NCBI GenBank assembly: GCA_013166775.1
Contig: JABLTJ010000002.1
Location: forward strand, 64,001 to 128,000
DNA from: Promethearchaeati archaeon
Lineage (GTDB): Archaea; Asgardarchaeota; Heimdallarchaeia; Heimdallarchaeales; Heimdallarchaeaceae
Reading direction: 5' to 3'
DNA: 64,000 nt
Of this stretch, positions 15,548 to 50,133 are shown in pieces. The notes under the pieces are model-generated. The model ran no database searches. It was not told where the DNA came from and saw nothing but the letters and a program-made list of their open reading frames with translations. The translations under genes were made by a program, and so were the position numbers. How positions within the stretch are numbered: the first letter of the stretch is position 1; each line of letters begins with the position of its first letter.

Positions 15548-16318
15548 TTAAACTGGTGATATTTCAATATTTAGAACGTCAAGAATTCTTGTCATTTCTT
15601 TAACATCTTCGATTGTTTTTATTCTTAAAGCACTTCTAAACATTGTTGAATTTAATTCAGAGGCAGTTTTGAAAATGTCACGTTTTCTCCAGACATCAAC
15701 TGAGGGATTGTAAAGAAGAATGTACATCACTTTTTTGTCCATATCACAGAGAAGATAAGTGTCTGCATATTCCAATCTTTTTCCTATCATTTCTTTTAAT
15801 GTATTATCTTGGTTCACACCATAAATTCTGGGTATTTTACCTGAAAACATGTCTATCATTCTTGTATACATTTTCTTGATTGAACTTGGATCGATTCCAG
15901 ATTCTCTCTGCAAACCTCTAGCTATCAATGTGAAATATGGTTCTATTAATCCATAACTATCTAGAACTTCTCTTACTGCTATTCCTTCAAATAGGAAATA
16001 AGCTACGCACAATCTATAACCAGAAGCAGCAATTCTTTCATCTGCTGAACTTGTAATTTCTGTTTCAAAAGGTATTGCAATAGCTTTGATATTTTCATGA
16101 TCAGGAACAGGTATTGGACCTAACATTTTTGGATTTTTGGTTCCATCAACTTTTCCGATTGATCCTTTGTTCATCTCAACTAGTGTCATTCCACTCATTA
16201 CTAAAGTTAAGGCTGTATTTTCTTCTACTTCTGAATTGTTAAATAATATCTCGGGACCGTAGTCCTTGAATATACTGAATATCAATTTTGGTTCTTTTGA
16301 AACATTTGGATTTATCAT
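15548..16318 (-). CDS. uDENN/longin-like domain fused to gelsolin-like domain
   Basis: N-terminal LIFSIFKDYGPEIL (NPR2/FLCN-type F..GP). C-terminal PRIYGV...LEYADTYLLCD...VMYI...RKRDIFKTASEL fits the gelsolin-repeat consensus. Confidence 0.6.
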   Translation of the reverse strand: MINPNVSKEPKLIFSIFKDYGPEILFNNSEVEENTALTLVMSGMTLVEMNKGSIGKVDGTKNPKMLGPIPVPDHENIKAIAIPFETEITSSADERIAASGYRLCVAYFLFEGIAVREVLDSYGLIEPYFTLIARGLQRESGIDPSSIKKMYTRMIDMFSGKIPRIYGVNQDNTLKEMIGKRLEYADTYLLCDMDKKVMYILLYNPSVDVWRKRDIFKTASELNSTMFRSALRIKTIEDVKEMTRILDVLNIEISPV

Positions 16319-16329
16319 TTTGGCACTCC

Positions 16330-17325
16330 TTATTGTGTATCTTCTCTACTTGGTTGTTGATCTAATAGAATTGCTATTTCAGGAATCTTGCTGAGAATTT
16401 CGTATTTGACTTGTCGAGGCATTTCCTTTGAAGGATCGCGTTCTTTTTCCTCAACAAAAGCATTTAGAATCTCTTCTGCGAGAGATTGTGCTTTGGATTC
16501 ACTATCATCTCGATCAACAAATAGAACTATACTCCATCCTCCCATCTTGCGGATAACCATCTTTACAACACCAAGTTTCACTACATCCATTACAGAATCA
16601 CTTTCAAAGATGGTTGAAGCCATGATATTAAGCGCACTAATCAACCCCCCAAGTAGAGTACTATCATGTTCTTCGACTGTTTGATCAAATGTATAATCAA
16701 ACGCTGGGACTCCTCCTTCTTGAAGTATTATGACCCTCTTTGGATTAACTTCTTCCCTTAGAGGTGTTCTTCCTGTCATTCTGGAGATTATCCAATCAAA
16801 AGCTGTGTAGAAATTTTCTCCAGTTTTTACACTGACTGGATAAATTGAAACAGAACGATTGATATCTTCCATAATTACTTGAAAAGCTGGATCTTGTAAC
16901 AAATCTGCAAAAGGAACAGCTTCAGCTATATCTGTTTTATTTGCCAAGAAAAGAATAGAAGTTTTTTGTGGTATCTTATCTAGTAAACTAAAAATATACT
17001 CAAAAGATACATCTACGTGTCTAGATGTTTGAGTATCTATAACAAAAACCACTCCATCTATTTCACCTAATATATCTTGGAAATAAGGACTTTCTCTTGC
17101 TGTTTCTTCATCTGCTTCAATAATTGTAAGAATGGACTTACCATAAGTTACATTTATAAAACAAGTTAGTTGTGTTGGTTGCGCGTCTGAAACAGTACCA
17201 TATATCAAACGATTTACAACACTTGATTTACCTGATTTCTCTAATCCTAATATAACTATCTGTGGTTTCTTTCCTTCTTTATTTAGTAGAAGTTTATCCC
17301 TAACGAAAGAAAGATAACTACTCAT
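16330..17325 (-). CDS. Arf/Sar-family GTPase (G3-degenerate) fused to longin domain
   Basis: G1 GLEKSGKS, G2 PT, G4 NKTD, G5 SVK; G3 reads IEADEE. C-terminal VIILQEGGVP...DSTLLGGLISALN longin pattern. Confidence 0.85.
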   Translation of the reverse strand: MSSYLSFVRDKLLLNKEGKKPQIVILGLEKSGKSSVVNRLIYGTVSDAQPTQLTCFINVTYGKSILTIIEADEETARESPYFQDILGEIDGVVFVIDTQTSRHVDVSFEYIFSLLDKIPQKTSILFLANKTDIAEAVPFADLLQDPAFQVIMEDINRSVSIYPVSVKTGENFYTAFDWIISRMTGRTPLREEVNPKRVIILQEGGVPAFDYTFDQTVEEHDSTLLGGLISALNIMASTIFESDSVMDVVKLGVVKMVIRKMGGWSIVLFVDRDDSESKAQSLAEEILNAFVEEKERDPSKEMPRQVKYEILSKIPEIAILLDQQPSREDTQ

Positions 17326-18329
17326 TATCTGCGTCCTCCTTCAACCTCAAGTGGAAACTTACTCTCTAATACTTCACTCAGATTCTTTTGAGCTTCTGTA
17401 GGATTTCGACTGAAATTCTCTAGAATTCTTAATTGAATCTGTTGTGCTCTAGTTACTGGATCAATTGGGTCTATCATAACAGATAAACAGTAAGCTCCAC
17501 GTTTAACATGACTAACATGTTTTTTATAGAGGCTTTCTAGTTTTACAGATTGAATACTTTCTTTTGACTCTATAGCAAAGAGTTTGGTTAATTCCTTGAG
17601 TTTCTTAAAATCATTTGCAACGAGAGCTTGCTCACTTGGTCTACCAAATAAAGCTTCAGAGATAATGTTTCCATCAATATCACTTAAAACTGCTGCACCA
17701 ATCTTGACTTTCCATTGCTGAGCGCCACAAAGCACATCTACAATCCAATCCCATGCGCTATAAACTCCTTGTCCAGTTAAAGCAGACACTTTTTTAATGT
17801 TGAATGGTCTTAAATTTCTGAGAAATTTATCTAATTCAAATGATTCATTAATTTCCGATAATTCCTTTGAATTAGGTAGGTCTCCCTTGTTTGCTAAGAA
17901 TAGTACTGGAGCACTTTGTTTTGCGAAATTTATATAATGCCAGAATGTTTGTTTTGATTCATCAAATCGAGCGTGATCAGCTGAATCTACTAAATAGATT
18001 ACTGCATCAGCTCTCTCAATAAATTTTTTCCATAAACTTAATCTAAATGGTTGATGTCCTCCTAAATCAAAACAAGTAAAATTTAAATCACGATATTGAT
18101 AATTTTCTAAATTGACCCCATAAGTAGGTCTTACAACTATATCATCTTGTTTTAGTAGTTTTTTAACCAAAGATGTTTTTCCTGCTCTTTCTAACCCTAG
18201 CAGAGCAACACTAAATTTATTCCTTCCTACAACTGATTCTTGGCTAGTTTCTACCTTCGTTGGTTGTTCTTGTTGCTCTCTTCTCTTCTTTTCTTCCATT
18301 ATACGTTTTCGAAATTCATAGAAAGACAT
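17325..18329 (-). CDS. Arf/Sar1-like GTPase fused to roadblock-like domain
   Basis: GLERAGKT, PTYG, FDLGGH, VDSADHARFDESK, NKGD, SAL. C-terminal AAVLSDIDGNII. AGGTGA SD; TAATG overlap with the next gene. Confidence 0.9.
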   Translation of the reverse strand: MSFYEFRKRIMEEKKRREQQEQPTKVETSQESVVGRNKFSVALLGLERAGKTSLVKKLLKQDDIVVRPTYGVNLENYQYRDLNFTCFDLGGHQPFRLSLWKKFIERADAVIYLVDSADHARFDESKQTFWHYINFAKQSAPVLFLANKGDLPNSKELSEINESFELDKFLRNLRPFNIKKVSALTGQGVYSAWDWIVDVLCGAQQWKVKIGAAVLSDIDGNIISEALFGRPSEQALVANDFKKLKELTKLFAIESKESIQSVKLESLYKKHVSHVKRGAYCLSVMIDPIDPVTRAQQIQLRILENFSRNPTEAQKNLSEVLESKFPLEVEGGRR

Positions 18330-40578: not shown

Positions 40579-43500
40579 TTACTCAGGTTGAGTTTCTTCC
40601 AATTCTTGAGCTGCTAACATAATCATTACTGATTTCTTTCTTACTACCTCAAGCTTTTCTTTAATCTCTGGAAGTTCTTTTTTAGCTTTAAGATCCTTAA
40701 TCAAATCATCAACTTCATCATAAAGAAAATCTTGGTAATTCAGAAGGAAATTACCAAAATCGCTGTCAGCTAAAACTATAAGTGAAAGATTCTCAAACCC
40801 ACCACGAGCAGCTTCATTTGAGAGTTGAATTCCATGAATAAAGCCTATCATCTTTTCTCTTGGAAGAACTATTGAACCAGTTCTTCTCCCAGCATCATGT
40901 TCTTCAAAACCAAGTGAGGAATATGCTTGGTCAGCTATCTTGAGCAAGAAATTCTCAACATCAATTTGCATCCTATTCTTATATCTAGCAATGTTTAGAG
41001 AGTGTTCTTCCAGAAGAGGTGTTGGACCCTTTCTTTGATCGAAAATAGTTAGTATTACACCAGGAGATACAATTGAATAGTTTAAAGCTATATCTTCGTC
41101 CGTTAGGTTTGACAATAGTTCTTCAAATTCTTTTGGACGAGTTACTTTGTAAACTATGAAAGCTATTAAAGCAACAGCAAGAACACTACCTCCAATTATT
41201 AGGTAAAGCATCCAACTTGGGAAACCAGGTGGTACAATTCGAATCACTTTTTCTTCAAGTTCAAAACTACTTGAGGATCTGATATTATCACCATCAAATG
41301 TTGCATTAATCATTACATAATCAATTTCAGGAGACATAGTAAACACGACAGTTGCAGAACCTGAGAAATCTGTTGTTTTATTTAGTATAACATAAGTAGT
41401 ATAATTTGTTGGAATTAATCCTTGAACTCCTGACGTTTGATCGTAACTATATGAATAGATGTAGAAATGGATTTCTTGTATTGGTACTCCTGTGTCATTT
41501 TCATATGTTAAAATACCTGTTATTGCTAGTTGTGTACCTTCTAGTACTGTGAAATTAGAAACCTGTATATCTAGGTACAAAGGTAAAGGTAATACTTCAA
41601 ATTCGAATGTCAAGTTTCCTTCAGCAATTGCGTAATAGAATTTGCTTTCTACATAAATATCGAAGGAGTAATTTCCTTTTGGAAGTGCGTATGTAGAATA
41701 ATTGAACCAGTATGTTGAAGTACCAGAAATATTATAGAACATAGTCGATACAGAGTTGACTTCAACATAATCAATCGATATATTTTGTCCAAGATGATCT
41801 TTTAGATTAAGATAAACAGTTACATCTTCACCATAATACACTGAAAATCTACTCTCATCTAGTATAGACAAATCTGCTATTTTTTTGTCAACAATAAGAT
41901 TTACTCTTATTGTTCTGCTTCCCCCAGCTAGTGTATAAAACTCAATGTCAACGAAAGTCACATTACCATTTGTAATATTAGTACACTCTATCTCACAGTA
42001 GTAAATTGTACTGTCTTGTTTAGTTATATCTACTTTAAAATTATAAGATTCTTGATGATGTCTTGTATATAAATCTGTTATTTCTATTTGATTAACTGTA
42101 TCTGTTACATTTACAATAAAATAAACAATGTCTGAGTAATTTGTTTGAACCGAATAAATATCATTTATCCATTCTTTTTCCGTTGGATCTATATATTTAA
42201 TATCAATGTCAGCAACTTTGATGTAGAAGGTTGCTGATGCTTTATTTGGTGCTAAACCTATTGCATCATCAAATAAATTAATTTGTAAAGTGTGATTTCC
42301 ATCTACTGGTTTTACTTTGAAAATCCATGAATCTGCTTCTCTTAATTCATCAGTTTCATCATCATCCCATTTATAGTAGAATCTAGCTAAATCTTGATTT
42401 ACAGAACTATTGTACCATATTGGTGTGTTCCCTGTAAAAATATAACTCCCCCCATTGATTAATTCTGTTAACACTCCGCTTTCATTTAGATACAATTTTA
42501 TTATAGGTGCTTCAAAATCAGTAAGAAAATCAAAAATATAGGTTGCTGAACTACCTAAAACATCAGTTGCTTCTATAACCACTGATGCAGTTTCGTTATG
42601 ATCATAAAAATTCTGAGGATTTGGTAGAAAACTTATCTCGAAATCAGTTAGTGGTACATTATCATTCCACCAGTTTTTCGTAAGATCAGAATCCCAATAA
42701 TATCGTATTTCACTTACAGTTAATAGATATTCATCATAAACACTGAAACCAAAAATTGTACCTCCATTCACCGTAGTATTCTCTGGAAAAGATGAGAGTG
42801 AGATAATAGGAGCATCTGAATCAATTGTCAGTATTCTCGAAAACGCTTGAAAATTCCCAAGACTATCATTAACAAAAATGTAGAGTAAAGCAGTTCCATC
42901 AGGTTGGCTTAAAATAAATTCATCTGTAAATTGTATTAGTGATGAACCATTCCATGCATAATAACTGAAAACGGAATTATCATCATCAGTAATGTCAATT
43001 TGAATTGTAGCATCTGAAGGAATGTATATATTTCCATCTATCGAAGTATAATCTACTTCCAGAGGGATAGTTACATCTATTGTTGGTTTTGTTGTATCTA
43101 TAATGAAAACTAATAATTTAACTTCAAAATTTCCTGCAATATCTAGAGCATATATACAGAATTCATGTTTTCCATCAGCAAGAGTGATTAGGTTAAATTG
43201 GTAGGGATAGATTAATGTTTGATTTGCTTTTTCATCAATTGAGTATAATACTATCAAATCACTTGAAAGAATATAATTATCAGTTATTGTAAAGATGAAT
43301 ATTGTATCAGTCGTGAATCTTGTATTATTATAAATTAAAATACTATTATCAATATTGGGAGCTGTTTGATCAACAGTGAGATTAAAGAAAAATATGTGTT
43401 CGACATCAAAAACATCAGAACAAAAAACTGTTAAGTTATGAAAACCAGGAGTAGAAGGAAGTGCATCAACTCCAGTCAAAGTTAATTGACCAGCGATTAT

Positions 43501-45354
43501 ATCTCCGTCTTCTCTTATTCCACCATCCCAGATATAACTAATAGTTCCGTTGCTTTTTTGTACATTAATTATTACTTCTTCACCACCAAGATAATAGGAA
43601 TTGTTTCTTAATTCAGCTAATTCAACCAAAAATACGTTAGGATCAGTATAGAATTGAAACATTACATTAGTTAAATGTTCATAATTATCATATGCAGAAA
43701 TGTACAAATAATGATTTCCTTCAGCCGAAGGTAAGCTTGTTTGGTATATTTTTCCTTGTGCAGGAAGCCAAGGAGCATCTCCATCTGAATCCCAATGAAA
43801 ATTTACATTATTGATTCCTAAATCATCATCTATCTCTACTTCAATTATTTTCCCTGGAGCATACGTTGAACCATCAATCACATTATAAAGAATAACCGTA
43901 GGAAAATCAGAATCAAAAGTAAATTGATAGAAGAAGGTTTCAGTTGAATAGAAATCAATTATCCTCAAGGTAATATTATGTAATCCTGAAAAACTAGGAT
44001 TTGTTATGTCATATGGACTACTTAATAGATACCACATTCCATTATTGTCCCACATATACTCGACCGTATCAACGCTAAATGCCGTGAAATTTAATATTGA
44101 TCCTCCCCCAATCGTTGAACCATTTATAGGAGAATTCAGTACTAAATTCGTAGTCGATGCATCATAACCAAATCGATAAAATTCTGTTCTTGTATTGCCA
44201 AAAACAGGATCAATAGCTTCAGTCTCCAAATCATGCCAACCATGCACAGAAGGCAGATTTATTGTTGTTTGATTTTCAAAAGGTATCCAACTCCCCCCAT
44301 CCCATCTGTAAGAGCTAGTAGAGCCATCAGTAACATCAATAGTCATTTCTTGAGCTGTTTGATATACTGTCTCATTTGATGCACCTAAAAGATTAATATC
44401 TGGAATTCTTTTGGATCTCATGTAAAGCTGAATTCCAGTCATTCTAGTTACATTATTTATCGTGTATGTATTACTATAGATATCATCATTAATGGTCCAT
44501 GTTGTTGAACTTGTAGTACCATCATAAGGATAACCTGTCATATGCAAAAAAGAACCTGTAGAAGGTACTGAACTGAAACTTAATTGTATATCCCATCTTA
44601 ATCTATATCCTGCTGGTATTGTAGTTGTAGAAATTGTGTCTGAAAAAGTTCTATATCCAGTCCACATACTTATTGGGTAAGTCTGAGTTCTCGATGCAAT
44701 TAATTGTGGATTGAGAGGATCAGCTGGATTAAATAAGTATAATAGCACTCTATAACCTATAGTAACAGCTTCAGAAAAAACTGCAGAATCATTAACAGTT
44801 AACCATGACCACCAATGAACTTTGCCTGAAATTTCATAATCCTCAGTAAAAACAGGACTATATATTTTAGAAGGCTCATTAGGATAACCTTGTTCTCTTA
44901 AATAGAACCAATTGGTATCATTAGGCCAAGTTTTAGGTACAGAACTAAGAGCTCTCCAGTAAAACTCTTTGTTTAGGGTACCATCATTCTTAATCTCATC
45001 ATATGGTACCCATTCTACAATGTTTCGTCTTCCATATGGATCTTCCCCAGAAGGATCTGTTATTAGGGTTTCACCTACTCGTGATTCACCATAGATATAG
45101 CCAGTACCTCCAGGAAAGAAAGCGAAAGTTTCGAAATCACCAAGAGTTTCAGATTTTGTTACAGGATCATTATAAGGTGTATCACTTCTTGCGTCTGAAT
45201 TCTTTGTATTGTCATTCATTTCTAAGGATTTATCAAGTTTTCTTGTATCATTTTTTTCTTTATAATCTATATCCAAAAGACGGTTAATAACTAGTGTATT
45301 TAAGCATAAAATTATCAAGAATGTTCCAAACAATTGGTGGTTTTTATTTTTCAT
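40579..45354 (-). CDS. giant single-pass surface protein: Ig-like repeats + cytoplasmic folliculin/uDENN-type longin domain
   Basis: N-terminal hydrophobic segment, repeated YxWD..G.H.L...D..P units, TM WMLYLIIGG..., cytoplasmic IFDQRKGP...HGIQLSNEAARGG. Confidence 0.85.
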   Translation of the reverse strand: MKNKNHQLFGTFLIILCLNTLVINRLLDIDYKEKNDTRKLDKSLEMNDNTKNSDARSDTPYNDPVTKSETLGDFETFAFFPGGTGYIYGESRVGETLITDPSGEDPYGRRNIVEWVPYDEIKNDGTLNKEFYWRALSSVPKTWPNDTNWFYLREQGYPNEPSKIYSPVFTEDYEISGKVHWWSWLTVNDSAVFSEAVTIGYRVLLYLFNPADPLNPQLIASRTQTYPISMWTGYRTFSDTISTTTIPAGYRLRWDIQLSFSSVPSTGSFLHMTGYPYDGTTSSTTWTINDDIYSNTYTINNVTRMTGIQLYMRSKRIPDINLLGASNETVYQTAQEMTIDVTDGSTSSYRWDGGSWIPFENQTTINLPSVHGWHDLETEAIDPVFGNTRTEFYRFGYDASTTNLVLNSPINGSTIGGGSILNFTAFSVDTVEYMWDNNGMWYLLSSPYDITNPSFSGLHNITLRIIDFYSTETFFYQFTFDSDFPTVILYNVIDGSTYAPGKIIEVEIDDDLGINNVNFHWDSDGDAPWLPAQGKIYQTSLPSAEGNHYLYISAYDNYEHLTNVMFQFYTDPNVFLVELAELRNNSYYLGGEEVIINVQKSNGTISYIWDGGIREDGDIIAGQLTLTGVDALPSTPGFHNLTVFCSDVFDVEHIFFFNLTVDQTAPNIDNSILIYNNTRFTTDTIFIFTITDNYILSSDLIVLYSIDEKANQTLIYPYQFNLITLADGKHEFCIYALDIAGNFEVKLLVFIIDTTKPTIDVTIPLEVDYTSIDGNIYIPSDATIQIDITDDDNSVFSYYAWNGSSLIQFTDEFILSQPDGTALLYIFVNDSLGNFQAFSRILTIDSDAPIISLSSFPENTTVNGGTIFGFSVYDEYLLTVSEIRYYWDSDLTKNWWNDNVPLTDFEISFLPNPQNFYDHNETASVVIEATDVLGSSATYIFDFLTDFEAPIIKLYLNESGVLTELINGGSYIFTGNTPIWYNSSVNQDLARFYYKWDDDETDELREADSWIFKVKPVDGNHTLQINLFDDAIGLAPNKASATFYIKVADIDIKYIDPTEKEWINDIYSVQTNYSDIVYFIVNVTDTVNQIEITDLYTRHHQESYNFKVDITKQDSTIYYCEIECTNITNGNVTFVDIEFYTLAGGSRTIRVNLIVDKKIADLSILDESRFSVYYGEDVTVYLNLKDHLGQNISIDYVEVNSVSTMFYNISGTSTYWFNYSTYALPKGNYSFDIYVESKFYYAIAEGNLTFEFEVLPLPLYLDIQVSNFTVLEGTQLAITGILTYENDTGVPIQEIHFYIYSYSYDQTSGVQGLIPTNYTTYVILNKTTDFSGSATVVFTMSPEIDYVMINATFDGDNIRSSSSFELEEKVIRIVPPGFPSWMLYLIIGGSVLAVALIAFIVYKVTRPKEFEELLSNLTDEDIALNYSIVSPGVILTIFDQRKGPTPLLEEHSLNIARYKNRMQIDVENFLLKIADQAYSSLGFEEHDAGRRTGSIVLPREKMIGFIHGIQLSNEAARGGFENLSLIVLADSDFGNFLLNYQDFLYDEVDDLIKDLKAKKELPEIKEKLEVVRKKSVMIMLAAQELEETQPE

Positions 45355-45375
45355 ATTCTTCCTCTTCTTCTTGTT

Positions 45376-48300
45376 TTAATTTTCCATTTTTTGCGCAGCT
45401 AACATAATTTGGACAGATTTCTTTCTGATTTTTATCAGAATTTCATTTATCTCAGTTAGTTCTTTCTTCGATTTAAGAGCAGAATTTAGCAAATCTGCTT
45501 CATCATAAATATATTCTTGGTAGTTTAATAGATAAGTTCCAAAATCAGTATCAGCTAAAACTATAAGGGACAGATTTTCAAATCCTCCTCGTGCAGCTTC
45601 ATTTGGGAGTTGAATACCATGAACCCATCCAATCATTTTTTCACCAGGCAAAACTATAGATCCCACTCTTCTTCCAACATCATGCTCTTCAAAACCTAAG
45701 GAACTATATGCTTGATCTGATATTTTAAGTAGGAAGTTTTCTATTCCCATTCTTAACCTAATACTGTATTTTTCAAATTTCAAGCTATGATCCATTACTA
45801 AAGGTACAGGACCTTTCTTCTGATCAAAGATAGATAAAACTGCACCTGGTGAGATAATTGAATAATTTTCTTCAACTTCTTCATCAGTAATCTCTTCTAG
45901 GAATTTTTGGAATGGTTTTCTTCGTGTTACTTTATATACAATTATAGAAATAATTAATGCAAGAGCTAAACTTCCACCAATAATAATGTATAATAGCCAA
46001 GAAGGTAAACCGGGAGGAGGGGTTGTAAAAACTGGTGCCTCAAGAGCAGAATTTATTATTCCATAATAATCATCTCCAGAGTAACTAACTTCAATATCAA
46101 CATAATCTATATCAGCACTCATCGAGAAAGCCTTTTGGAAATAACCTTCAAAATCAGTAGTTACTGTAAAAACTTCTAGATCATCATAATTAGCGGTATC
46201 GAAAGCATATACTCTTTTTCCATTTTCCTTTAATTTAATATAAATTGTAATTTCAATCTCTGCTAAACTTATTGGGGTTCCATTAAGTAATGTTAGTTGT
46301 CCAGTTATAATTAATTGAGCTTCTTCTATAATTTCATGTTCTGAAACTTCAATTGTTAACATAGTTTCGAGAGGATTTATTTCAATATCAATGATACTCT
46401 CCCCTATAAAGAAATTTGATTCAACGTAAATTACAAGAGAATAATTTCCTTTTCCTTGAAACATTACAGAGGAGATATTGAATTGATAGAACCTATCAGG
46501 AAGCTCTGTAAAGTTAAAAATATGGGTATCTCCATCAATAATAATCATGATAATTCTTTCATTTTCACCCACATTATTTTCCAGTTTCATTACAATAGTG
46601 ATATTTTCTTCGTATGTGACCTCTTGAATACTTCTGGAATCTATTGAAAGGCTTCCTTCTTTCTTTTCAATATCTAGATATATTCTAATGAGCTGTTTAC
46701 TTTCTTCAAATTTGTAGAATTGAATCTCAATTTCTGTTAGTAAACCTTTAGTTACATTTGTTGCAATAATCAGAATCTCATATGTTATGTTATCTAATTT
46801 GATAATTTCAACAGAGAGGTTTAATTTCATATCTTTTATTATTTTATATTGAAGTCCAAGTATTTCTAATCCATATGTTGCATCAGTTATATTTAGTACA
46901 AAACTTACATTATTACCGTATATCAAATTTGTTGAATTTTCATATGCATACAGGGTTTCAATAAAATCGTTTGATTTTGAGAAATTCAAAACTATGTTAT
47001 CTACGAAAAAGTAGAAGGTTTGTGTAACTTGATTAGGAAATAATCCCACAGAGTCATCAGTTAGAATGACAGTCAAATTATGGAAACCATCGATTAGAGG
47101 AGTTTCTAACGTCCAACTTTCACTTTCATTTAAAATTTGGATATTCTCACTATAGCCATCCCAATAATATTCGAAAGAAACTAAATCATCATTCACAGAA
47201 GCGTTATATACAATCTGAATTCCACTTTTGACATAATAAACACCTGAAGCATCAACCCATTTATCTTTAGCTGGATTAAAAATAGCTAGGTCGACTATTG
47301 GAGCTTCAATGTCAATCAAAAACAGAAAAGTATAGGTAAAATTATTTCCAACTATATCTTCAATATAAACAGAGAATTTCGCTGTAGTATCGTGTTGATA
47401 AACAGGGAGAACACTTATGCTAAGATCGTTTATTGGGGAAGTAAACCAAAATCCAGTAAGTTTATCCCAAGAATAGCTAACCTCGTCAATAGTTAAATCT
47501 GAATAATCTTCAATTTCAAACTCAAGTAGAGTTTCATAATTTATTTTAGTGGTTACATTTTCATAGTTAAGTAGAGTTATACTAGGAATTGTTCCATCTA
47601 TTATAAGATTAAACTGAATACTACGAGCATTACCTAAAGAATCTATAGCTCTAATATGGAGGATACTATTTTCGTCAGAATAAGCCAAATAAAAATGATA
47701 GCTAAAATCAATATATGGAGGATCACCCCATGCATATTCTGTTGTTACTAAGGGATCATCATCTACGATAGTAACTATTACTTCTGCATTAAAAGGAACA
47801 TATTTATTACCATCAATGGTTACAAAATCAACTAAATCTGGTATTGATACAATTATTATTGGTTTTGTTGTATCTACAACAAAAACAAGAAATTTCTCAT
47901 CTATATTTCCTGCTATATCAATTACTTTGATGTTTAAATAATGCGTGCCATCTTCTAAGTAAATCAATGCGTATTGATAAGGCTCATTTAGGAGCCTATT
48001 TGCTTTACCATCTATTGAATACAATACAGTCAAATCAGATCCAGAAACATAATTATCTGTGATATTAAAAATAAATATTTGATCAGTTAGGAATCTGCTG
48101 TTATTATAGATAGAAATATCAGAATCAATCACTGGTGCTTCTAGATCTACAATGAGAATGAAATAAAGTATATATTGAACATCTGAAGAGTCGTAAGTTA
48201 TTATTGTAAGATTGTGAGAACCTGCAGTTAAAGGAATACCTTCTGAACCTTCTAATGTAAGTGTTGAACTGAAAATTGAACCTTCTTCTTCTATCCCACT

Positions 48301-50133
48301 ATCCCAAATATAAGAAACTGTACCATTACTTTTTTGGATAGTTACCTTAACAGTTTCTCCTCCTTGATAGTATGAATTATTTGTCAATTCTTGTAGCTCG
48401 ACAAGAAATACATTACTATCTGCATAAAAGTAGAAAACCGTACTATTAACTTGGTTTAAAATATCAGAAGCATATACATACAAATAATGATTACCATCAG
48501 TGATTGGTATATTGGTTCTGTATATATTTCCAAATTCAGGATTCCATGTAGAATTTGAATGAGAATCCCAGTGATATTTAACATTTTTAATACCTGAAGA
48601 ATCAGAAATCTCAACATCAATTGTTTTTAATGGAGCATAAGTTGATCCATTAACAACGTTATCAAGTAGAATAGATGGTATATCGGAATCAAATGTAAAA
48701 TAATAGATGTAAATATCACTAGAATAGAAATCCGTAGTTCTTATCGTCAAGTTGTGTTCTAATTCAAACACTGGGGCTAGTATATCATAAGGAGATAATA
48801 GAGGGATCTGTGTTTCGCTACTATCCCACTCGTATGTAACAGTATCCACAGCATAAGCTGAAAAATTTAGATAAGTTCCAGCTTCAACCGTTGATCCATT
48901 TGAATATGGTTCATGTAGTTCTAAGTTTATAATTGAAGCATCATAACCGAATTGATAATAAGCTGTTCGTGTATTATTATACACTGGATCACTGGCAACA
49001 ATTTCTAAATCATGCCAACCAGCAGTTGTTGGAAGTGTAATTAGTGTTGAATTATCAAAAACATTCCAAATTCCACTATCCCACCTGTACTTACTTATTG
49101 AACCATCAGTGACATCAATAGTCATTTCTTGAGCATTCTGGTATACAGTGTTATTCATAGCATTATATAAATCGATATCCGGAGTATTGTTTTCATGCAT
49201 ATAAAGTTGAACACCAAGAATTCCATCTACATTATATATAGTGTAACTATTGGAATGAATACCATCATTAATGTTCCAATCCATGTTTGTTCCTGAGATC
49301 CCTGAATCAGAATATTGTCCATCTTGTATTATGTTCAAAGTACAATGACCTTGTGTTGCTCCTACATCACTATATGCATACTCATATGTTAATTTGAATC
49401 TATCACCTGCGGGAACAGTATACGATGTTAGCGTGCTATTTGTTTCTAACCATTCCCAATACTCTGTATCGGTTGGAGTATTAATCTTCGGTAATAGATA
49501 TGCAACTGAAGTTATTTCTGTAGAAATATTCGTACTAGAATGATAGTGCCAGAGAATGATTTTTAATGTTATATCTATTGAGTTAAAATATGAATCATAG
49601 GGATCGTCGTTTAAATCTCTGTGCATATTAAAGATATAATGAACTTTATCTTCTATAGTTGTGTCATAATCTAAAACTGGACTGTACATAATTGATTTTA
49701 AACCTGAAGCCCAATAATCAACTCCAAAATAATAAGCATCATTTTCAGAAGGTACTGGAGCATAGGTTATATCTCCAACTCCAAATCTTTTAGTATTTAT
49801 ATCCCAAGCATCATGCCCAAGAATACTATCATAAGCTGTCCACTGATAACCTGATCCATTTGCATCCAGTTGAGAAGTGAATGTCTTATAGCTGAAGAAA
49901 GATTGTGTTTTAAAATCTCCTTCAATTACCTCTTGACGAATTTTATTCTTTGCTCCTTCTTCAATAGAATTATCATTTCTATTATCTATTTTTTCTAGAT
50001 TAGTATCTGAGGAATAATCTAGAAAATCACTCATTTGCTGCTCTTCTGGCATTGAAAGTTGATAAAACACTAATGAATTAATAAACACGAATATTAGCAT
50101 AAATGATAATGCTCTACTAGTATACAACTCCAT
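45376..50133 (-). CDS. giant single-pass surface protein, tandem paralog of 40579..45354
   Basis: Same architecture; cytoplasmic IFDQKKGP...HGIQLPNEAARGG. Confidence 0.85.
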   Translation of the reverse strand: MELYTSRALSFMLIFVFINSLVFYQLSMPEEQQMSDFLDYSSDTNLEKIDNRNDNSIEEGAKNKIRQEVIEGDFKTQSFFSYKTFTSQLDANGSGYQWTAYDSILGHDAWDINTKRFGVGDITYAPVPSENDAYYFGVDYWASGLKSIMYSPVLDYDTTIEDKVHYIFNMHRDLNDDPYDSYFNSIDITLKIILWHYHSSTNISTEITSVAYLLPKINTPTDTEYWEWLETNSTLTSYTVPAGDRFKLTYEYAYSDVGATQGHCTLNIIQDGQYSDSGISGTNMDWNINDGIHSNSYTIYNVDGILGVQLYMHENNTPDIDLYNAMNNTVYQNAQEMTIDVTDGSISKYRWDSGIWNVFDNSTLITLPTTAGWHDLEIVASDPVYNNTRTAYYQFGYDASIINLELHEPYSNGSTVEAGTYLNFSAYAVDTVTYEWDSSETQIPLLSPYDILAPVFELEHNLTIRTTDFYSSDIYIYYFTFDSDIPSILLDNVVNGSTYAPLKTIDVEISDSSGIKNVKYHWDSHSNSTWNPEFGNIYRTNIPITDGNHYLYVYASDILNQVNSTVFYFYADSNVFLVELQELTNNSYYQGGETVKVTIQKSNGTVSYIWDSGIEEEGSIFSSTLTLEGSEGIPLTAGSHNLTIITYDSSDVQYILYFILIVDLEAPVIDSDISIYNNSRFLTDQIFIFNITDNYVSGSDLTVLYSIDGKANRLLNEPYQYALIYLEDGTHYLNIKVIDIAGNIDEKFLVFVVDTTKPIIIVSIPDLVDFVTIDGNKYVPFNAEVIVTIVDDDPLVTTEYAWGDPPYIDFSYHFYLAYSDENSILHIRAIDSLGNARSIQFNLIIDGTIPSITLLNYENVTTKINYETLLEFEIEDYSDLTIDEVSYSWDKLTGFWFTSPINDLSISVLPVYQHDTTAKFSVYIEDIVGNNFTYTFLFLIDIEAPIVDLAIFNPAKDKWVDASGVYYVKSGIQIVYNASVNDDLVSFEYYWDGYSENIQILNESESWTLETPLIDGFHNLTVILTDDSVGLFPNQVTQTFYFFVDNIVLNFSKSNDFIETLYAYENSTNLIYGNNVSFVLNITDATYGLEILGLQYKIIKDMKLNLSVEIIKLDNITYEILIIATNVTKGLLTEIEIQFYKFEESKQLIRIYLDIEKKEGSLSIDSRSIQEVTYEENITIVMKLENNVGENERIIMIIIDGDTHIFNFTELPDRFYQFNISSVMFQGKGNYSLVIYVESNFFIGESIIDIEINPLETMLTIEVSEHEIIEEAQLIITGQLTLLNGTPISLAEIEITIYIKLKENGKRVYAFDTANYDDLEVFTVTTDFEGYFQKAFSMSADIDYVDIEVSYSGDDYYGIINSALEAPVFTTPPPGLPSWLLYIIIGGSLALALIISIIVYKVTRRKPFQKFLEEITDEEVEENYSIISPGAVLSIFDQKKGPVPLVMDHSLKFEKYSIRLRMGIENFLLKISDQAYSSLGFEEHDVGRRVGSIVLPGEKMIGWVHGIQLPNEAARGGFENLSLIVLADTDFGTYLLNYQEYIYDEADLLNSALKSKKELTEINEILIKIRKKSVQIMLAAQKMEN

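Follow-up and report, generated by a model that had tools for sequence, protein, structure and literature searches.

A longin–gelsolin fusion protein encoded with two Arf-like GTPases in Heimdallarchaeia: a candidate arginine-finger regulator of a Rag-architecture GTPase pair

The window analysed here is a stretch of 64,000 nucleotides (positions 64,001 to 128,000 of contig JABLTJ010000002.1, assembly GCA_013166775.1, forward strand) from a genome of the Heimdallarchaeaceae recovered from marine sediment; the region is low-GC DNA, at approximately 32% GC. Its minus strand carries three coupled genes in the order G1–G2–LG. G1 and G2 encode two GTPases, while the last gene, LG (shorthand for longin + gelsolin-like protein), encodes a two-domain protein of 256 residues. 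The LG open reading frame (ORF; 15548–16318), picked out by an earlier reading of the sequence alone, is genuine: it starts with ATG and has a Shine-Dalgarno sequence, GGAGTG, 7 nt upstream. The G1 and G2 frames overlap as TAATG, with GGAGGA upstream, and the LG start lies 11 nt past the G2 stop codon. The interpretation favoured here, at a little better than an even chance, is that LG is a regulatory subunit of the GTPase-activating protein (GAP) type for the G1–G2 module, whose activity would depend on an arginine, R95, in its longin domain. This role for the co-operonic GTPase or GTPases is preferred because of the longin–gelsolin architecture of LG, the presence of R95 together with a ‘GP motif’, and the recurrent linkage of LG genes to GTPase genes.

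LG has no match in Pfam (at E ≤ 1) or NCBIfam. An exhaustive HMMER search yielded 42 homologue representatives at 50% clustering, around 20 of them full length; those with named sources come from Heimdallarchaeota, Kariarchaeaceae, Hodarchaeales and Wukong-, Odin- and Thorarchaeota, and are in every case annotated as ‘hypothetical protein’. Among genomes of the class Heimdallarchaeia (families f1–f7) the LG family is found in 80 of 82, with up to six or seven copies per genome; elsewhere in the phylum it occurs in only 8 of 317. When the LG alignments were searched against the sequences of the PDB, proteins of the FLCN, NPRL2 or SMCR8 type were not found at E ≤ 10, and the alignment of 20 homologues (A1) gave a single chance match. 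The longin-only paralogues of this genome (of the L002, L003 and L055 type) likewise lack matches to Pfam Folliculin or NPR2, and so do not connect LG with its eukaryotic counterparts by sequence. The sequencing runs carrying the operon are all of marine-sediment DNA, with no RNA run listed.

The fold of LG was predicted with AlphaFold2 using alignment A1 as input, and compared with known structures by Foldseek and VIA-align, the latter giving aligned ranges only. The model (predicted local distance difference test, pLDDT, 81.7; predicted template modelling score 0.72) consists of two domains, in agreement with the uDENN-longin plus gelsolin-like fusion that the sequence-only reading had proposed. 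The N-terminal domain is predicted to be a longin, with strands at residues 11–18, 21–27, 66–71, 74–87 and 101–111 and the usual helices. Its nearest structure is Lst4 of K. lactis, an orthologue of FNIP, at Z 11.5, closely followed by the longin domain of a Loki roadblock-longin protein (8yqg, Z 11.4), FLCN as part of either the lysosomal or the active folliculin complex (8dhb_J and 6nzd_H, Z 10.6), C9orf72 (Z 9.4) and NPRL2 (Z 9.2); TRAPP longins score lower (Z 8.0). Searched by shape, the ESM Atlas yielded archaeal clusters, some with members that carry Pfam Folliculin or NPR2, as well as eukaryotic NPRL2 and C9orf72 clusters.

Conservation was counted over 36 aligned family members, reaching down to 18% identity. 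Two features of the longin domain stand out. At the N-terminus of strand 2, the GP motif, Gly21-Pro22, is invariant. The loop joining strands 4 and 5 holds the sequence D93-E-R95, in which D93 is present in all 36 sequences and R95 is arginine in 35, including all 20 of the close homologues; the longin-loop arginine pointed out by the sequence-only reading is thus confirmed as conserved. A further invariant motif, G67-P68-x-P70, opens strand 3 and is as conserved as the GP motif; we know of no described counterpart. A GP motif beside an arginine finger is common to FLCN, NPRL2, SMCR8/C9orf72 and one class of Asgard longins, and both are missing from the longins of FNIP2, NPRL3, TRAPP, adaptin and DENND proteins (PMC12290439). 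In the active folliculin complex, the loop of FLCN residues 10–16 touches RagC (PMC9473554). The VIA-align range pairing the model from residue 9 with FLCN from residue 2 is compatible, as an aligned range, with the GP motif lying near that FLCN loop; in the same terms, the pairing of model residues 7–162 with NPRL2 5–145 is compatible with R95 lying near NPRL2 R78.

The C-terminal domain is predicted to have a gelsolin fold, in which one long and one short helix flank a mixed sheet; this upheld the fold assignment made earlier from sequence. By VIA-align, residues 160–256 match adseverin (Z 9.8), gelsolin G2 (Z 9.5), the Thor gelsolin ProGel (7c2f_B; Z 9.4, 86 of 88 residues, root-mean-square deviation 2.8), Loki 2DGel (Z 8.2, 25% identity) and, further down, the gelsolin domain of Sec23a (Z 7.9, 89 residues). 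Pfam Gelsolin does not match the domain, so that its membership of that family is remote. Nevertheless, a profile of the wider LG family (A5) aligns over its full length with Thor ProGel 7c2f_B by sequence (E 0.001). A search of the genome itself with the family profile picks up a pair of gelsolin-type proteins, neither of which is recognised by Pfam; one of these (L007) aligns with the LG C-terminal domain in hhalign with a probability of 79% (E 1.6e-5). Because of these sequence matches, the relationship is taken to be true homology, more than a resemblance of folds. Conserved positions in the domain are R164, E176 (36/36), N223, E241 and L246. A partial DENN or TINI domain was considered for this region, since the alignments that Foldseek and the Atlas give with NPRL2 and C9orf72 continue beyond the longin. 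It was rejected: with the DENN region of C9orf72 included in the alignment, Z is 8.4–8.9 against 9.4 for the longin alone, whereas gelsolins match more strongly and are backed by sequence. No C-terminal DENN domain of the kind present in FLCN, FNIP, SMCR8 and C9orf72 was found in LG.

Both partner proteins have G domains that score in Pfam as Arf (8e-39 for G1, 5e-18 for G2) rather than as Gtr1_RagA (9e-6 and 2.5e-4, respectively). G1 retains every G motif: the P-loop GLERAGKT, DLGGH, NKGD and SAL. The histidine of DLGGH, His92, is invariant in 17 of 17 sequences; histidine in place of the catalytic glutamine is typical of Sar1 and SRbeta. The N-terminal segment of G1, MSFYEFRKRI, is conserved (S2, F3 and R7 are invariant) and is followed by a basic stretch; judged by its sequence, it could be an amphipathic membrane anchor of the Arf/Sar type. 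G2 keeps the P-loop, GLEKSGKS, and NKTD, but in Heimdallarchaeaceae has EADEE in place of DxxG, whereas its orthologue in another family (L056:3928-4893) reads DLGQD. G2 looks like a GTPase drifting towards a pseudo-GTPase partner. The two proteins are paralogous throughout, both in the G domain and in a C-terminal domain (CTD) of about 130 residues (hhalign probability 99.8%, 267 columns). The model of the G2 CTD (pLDDT 70.6) has a roadblock fold, with matches to MglB (Z 13.2), Loki roadblock (Z 12.3), LAMTOR subunits (Z 11–12), and the CTD of RagA and the Loki RagA-like GTPase LokiRagO (Z 8.8); an Atlas feature search with it gave sub-threshold leads only (roadblock/LAMTOR2, score 0.85). The roadblock fold of the G2 CTD, and the homology of G1 and G2 through this region, point to a Rag architecture for both, in which a predicted roadblock CTD is joined to an Arf/Sar-like G domain.

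The genetic association of LG with GTPases extends well beyond this operon. Neighbourhoods were compared at 34 loci placed by genome coordinates and on three metagenome contigs (two distant homologues), and their ORFs were scanned with hidden Markov models of the G domain and of LG. The layouts observed are given in Table 1 with the features of the locus. LG paralogues adjoin both Arf-type and Rag-type genes, the latter at L052, L055, L061, L066, L074 and L075 with Pfam Gtr1_RagA E values between 1e-32 and 1e-36, including 3e-35, 9e-34, 1.5e-32 and 2e-36. A complete genome of 4.9 Mb has five of its six best Gtr1_RagA genes no more than 3 kb from LG-family genes, and a GTPase gene is directly adjacent in about four to five of the roughly 11 LG paralogue groups. 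The association is strong in qualitative terms, not as a formal statistic, as the paralogue groups are related and not independent samples. This recurrent operonic coupling of LG to Arf/Sar-like and Rag-type GTPase pairs appears to be new, as does the combination of a longin with a gelsolin-like domain in a defined family that spans the class.

Table 1. Features of the LG locus, gelsolin-type proteins of the same genome and LG gene layouts (positions without a locus prefix are those of the window)
Feature	Position or locus	Strand	Basis or remark
LG gene: longin + gelsolin-like protein, candidate GAP subunit	15548..16318	-	ORF, 256 aa
Longin (uDENN) domain, FLCN/NPRL2/SMCR8 type, aa 9-161 (predicted)	15836..16294	-	AlphaFold2 model + VIA-align
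Gelsolin-like domain, aa 162-256	15551..15835	-	VIA-align + family profile
G21-P22 ‘GP motif’, N-terminus of longin strand 2 (residues 21-27)	16253..16258	-	36/36
G67-P68-x-P70, start of longin strand 3	16109..16120	-	G67, P68, P70 each 36/36
D93-E94-R95 loop, longin strands 4-5; R95 candidate arginine finger	16034..16042	-	model + alignment
R244, previously proposed as a Sec23-like finger	15587..15589	-	R in 14/36
G1, Arf/Sar-like GTPase, 334 aa, all G motifs + predicted roadblock-type CTD	17325..18329	-	Pfam Arf 8e-39
G2, Arf-like GTPase, 331 aa, degenerate switch II + predicted roadblock CTD	16330..17325	-	Pfam Arf 5e-18
Gelsolin-type protein, 293 aa, own genome	L007:1507-2388		Thor ProGel 4e-7, Loki 2DGel 2e-5
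Gelsolin-type protein, 210 aa, own genome	L008:1108-1740		family profile
G1-G2-LG	f1 (L042-44); f7 (L056, L064)		Rab-like gene then follows in f7
LG then 178-aa Arf/Ras-type GTPase	L009, L010		40%-identical homologue; contigs stop just upstream of LG
Rag - degenerate Rag - LG - Rag	f5 (L050, L052, L054, L075)		
LG-like genes of ~346 aa adjoining Rag genes	L055, L066, L074		two tandem copies in L066
Rab-like / LG / Rag	L061 (another family)		

Three arrangements of LG-type genes can be described in more detail. An LG paralogue of a different Heimdallarchaeia family lies inside a five-gene run (L052:3021-7419; also L050, L054 and L075), which reads Gtr1_RagA GTPase (334 residues), degenerate Rag-like protein lacking a P-loop (285–305 residues), LG (265 residues), second Gtr1_RagA GTPase (309 residues) and a 184-residue protein assigned to no family. 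At L066:4968-10728, tandem LG-like genes (347 and 346 residues, with an extra C-terminal segment of about 100 residues) stand beside two Rag-family genes, one of 739 residues; the layout recalls a FLCN-FNIP-like pair next to a Rag pair. The third, on contig C65 of the same genome as LG (L005:1027-1881), encodes a 284-residue fusion of a response-regulator receiver (residues 7–109, Pfam 4e-16) with an LG-type longin (residues ~159–277, family profile E 5.5e-7), a combination through which two-component signalling may be connected with regulators of the longin type. Elsewhere in the window, the minus strand at 40579–50133 contains two neighbouring very long ORFs, of 1591 and 1585 residues.

A complex of G1, G2, LG and two GTP molecules was also predicted. 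Its interface score (ipSAE) was 0.48, 0.48 and 0.44, against 0.01, 0.00 and 0.00 for controls, and fell to 0.00 when an unrelated protein took the place of G1. The mark is one that 58 out of 80 solved complexes pass, along with 2 out of 110 mismatched pairs, but scores of 0.60 or less account for just 7 of those solved complexes and for the two mismatches alike. The runs agreed on at least 59% of contacts, with partner pLDDT of at least 76. The model gives weak support to the assembly and is not counted here as evidence for binding.

A possible mechanism can be outlined from these features. Since the two GTPases are predicted to share the architecture of Rag GTPases, G1 and G2 would most likely dimerise via their roadblock domains, as has been predicted for a Rag-like gene pair found in an operon of Loki strain MK-D1 (PMC10933270). 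G1, with its complete set of motifs and the Sar1/SRbeta-type histidine in DLGGH, would be the catalytically competent switch, and G2, lacking DxxG, probably a non-switching partner; for this reason G1 is also the likely substrate. We infer that LG docks through its longin domain onto one of the two G domains, with G1 as the most likely target, and that Arg95, in the strand 4–5 loop beside Gly21-Pro22, would there enter the nucleotide pocket and stimulate GTP hydrolysis, with the GP motif forming part of the catalytic pocket. Precedents for such an arginine finger are SMCR8 R147 acting on ARF1 (PMC8213707) and FLCN R164 acting on RagC (PMC9473554), and longin GAPs are known to serve both Arf GTPases, through C9orf72-SMCR8, and Rag GTPases (PMC8213707). 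The gelsolin-homologous domain stands where eukaryotic longin GAPs have a DENN domain, and would be an accessory module for dimerisation or scaffolding, for contact with the GTPase or for a connection with actin; it would not be expected to supply a catalytic arginine.

Several observations weigh against a GAP role for LG. Eukaryotic longin GAPs act as heterodimers of two longin proteins, and this operon holds a single LG gene, so that a homodimer or some other partner has to be assumed. Longin and roadblock regulators are mostly guanine nucleotide exchange factors (GEFs) or scaffolds. The Pfam Folliculin, NPR2 and SMCR8 models give LG no sequence-level match, and about half of the LG paralogue groups, those remaining, have no GTPase gene within 5 kb. 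The putative equivalence of R95 with NPRL2 R78 or FLCN R164 is derived from aligned ranges, and the conserved Asp-x-Arg could instead be structural.

Some of these points favour a different kind of regulator. LG could be a GEF, or a scaffold specific to one nucleotide state, for G1–G2, comparable to Ragulator, Mon1-Ccz1, TRAPP or DENN-type proteins, with D93 and R95 serving a structural or interface role. This would be the commoner function among longin and roadblock proteins, the matches of the LG longin do include TRAPP subunits, at Z 8.0, as well as the Loki roadblock-longin dimer, at Z 11.4, and linkage to GTPase genes does not by itself specify the kind of regulator. The nearest folds are nevertheless FLCN, FNIP, NPRL2 and C9orf72, not TRAPP or Mon1, and an invariant GP motif with a near-invariant loop arginine has been reported as present in GAP longins and absent from those of the GEF type (PMC12290439). 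A GEF or scaffold is judged unlikely. Somewhat less probable again is that LG works mainly as an effector or adaptor, its longin reading the nucleotide state of G1–G2 and its gelsolin-like domain regulating Asgard actin, a role which would be compatible with GAP activity. The homology of that domain to Asgard ProGel, an actin binder solved together with actin (7c2f_B), and to the gelsolin L007 of the same genome speaks for such a function; the domain is divergent, however, falling outside Pfam Gelsolin and having the usual ‘W-x-G’ after the central strand replaced, and the operon contains no actin gene.

The sequence-only reading had placed a second arginine finger in the gelsolin-like domain itself, with R244 inserted into the GTPase as Sec23 R722 is inserted into Sar1, and had seen in LG and the DLGGH GTPase a possible precursor of the Sar1–Sec23 pair. 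The residue numbers and strings behind this proposal (D93-E-R95 and R232-I-K-T-I-E237-D-V-K-E-M-T-R244) are correct. The fold also matches the Sec23a gelsolin domain, G1 bears a Sar1-type DLGGH, and Asgard Sec23-like proteins have been reported to lack a gelsolin domain (PMC11914678). Conservation tells strongly against it. R244 is arginine in only 12 of the 20 close homologues, K, P, T, Q, A, D, H, N or G occurring elsewhere among the 36; D, H or Q stands there in three Heimdallarchaeaceae homologues of 63–71% identity, including that of Heimdallarchaeum endolithica, whose lineage carries the same three-gene operon (L042-L044). The R-x4-E-x6-R spacing is no family motif either, with R232 being arginine in 18 of 36 sequences and E237 glutamate in 9 of 36, and no arginine after residue 213 is invariant across the 36. 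In the model R244 is located in a short C-terminal helix (239–248), the domain lies nearer to actin-type gelsolins, Asgard ProGel in particular, than to Sec23, and all the other Sec23 domains are absent. Because neither R244 nor the spacing is conserved, the Sec23-like mechanism is rejected as extremely improbable, and a precursor of the Sar1–Sec23 pair is speculation. What stands of the earlier proposal is the GAP role, which R95, the GP motif and the gene linkage leave as the best reading; its assignment to an adjacent DLGGH GTPase needs amending, in that G2 lies between G1 and LG.

A longin-type GAP subunit would share much with FLCN-FNIP, NPRL2-NPRL3 (GATOR1) and C9orf72-SMCR8, namely a longin fold (Z 9–11.5), a GP motif in strand 2 and a conserved loop arginine; like them, LG is coupled to a GTPase pair, its neighbours being Arf/Rag-family GTPases with the Rag-like combination of G domain and roadblock. 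It differs in its small size (256 residues), in having a gelsolin-like domain instead of DENN or the TINI/CTD of NPRL2, in being encoded by one gene as opposed to a two-longin heterodimer, in its lack of a Pfam-level match, and in that its GAP activity is a prediction. With the Asgard gelsolins (Thor ProGel 7c2f and Loki/Thor 2DGel) LG shares its C-terminal 95 residues (Z 8.2–9.4, up to 25% identity, profile E 0.001), but it differs from them in joining this domain to a longin, in its linkage to GTPases and in having no Pfam Gelsolin match. Like Sec23, the GAP for Sar1 in coat protein complex II, it has a gelsolin-like domain and is genetically tied to a DLGGH Sar1-like GTPase; unlike Sec23, it lacks a conserved arginine in that domain, its candidate catalytic arginine being in the longin, and it has none of the trunk, Zn-finger, beta-barrel and helical domains. 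G1 and G2, for their part, resemble Rag/Gtr heterodimers and MglA-MglB as tandem paralogues with a G domain and a predicted roadblock CTD, the CTD being nearest to MglB and roadblock proteins (Z 12–13). They depart from Rag/Gtr in their Arf-scoring G domains, the degenerate switch II of G2 and the third, longin–gelsolin gene of the operon. LG is thus best described as a longin GAP candidate by mechanism, and neither as a demonstrated member of the FLCN/NPRL2 sequence family nor as a relative of Sec23.

A more far-reaching idea, judged unlikely, is that the LG family represents the archaeal ancestor-type of the lysosomal longin GAPs of eukaryotes, FLCN, NPRL2 and SMCR8. The operon would then be a minimal ‘Rag/Arf pair + GAP’ module, in which the gelsolin-like domain might couple the GTPase cycle directly to actin, or might stand for the pool that supplied a gelsolin domain for recruitment beside a Sar1-type GTPase, as happened later in Sec23.

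Asgard archaea possess many Arf-, Rag- and Rab-like GTPases whose native regulators are unknown, and a structure search found no credible native Arf GAP in Asgard proteomes (PMC11914678). Asgard ‘FLCN/SMCR8-type longin’ proteins with a GP motif and an arginine finger have been noted, the choice between ArfR and Rag partners being left open (PMC12290439, Traffic 2025), in a study that makes no mention of a gelsolin-like domain, operons or gene neighbourhoods. The G1–G2–LG operon and its paralogous loci offer a concrete genetic candidate for the answer to this partner question, in the form of a compact set of three proteins of 334, 331 and 256 residues. Even if LG should prove not to be a GAP, its family would still be a widespread, unannotated signature protein of Heimdallarchaeia. 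If the predicted R95-dependent GAP activity is true, the mechanism by which the longin GAPs FLCN, GATOR1 and C9orf72 work would be older than eukaryotes and would already have been wired to GTPase pairs of Rag architecture, and the fusion of longin and gelsolin-like domains would hint at an ancient link between GTPases and actin.

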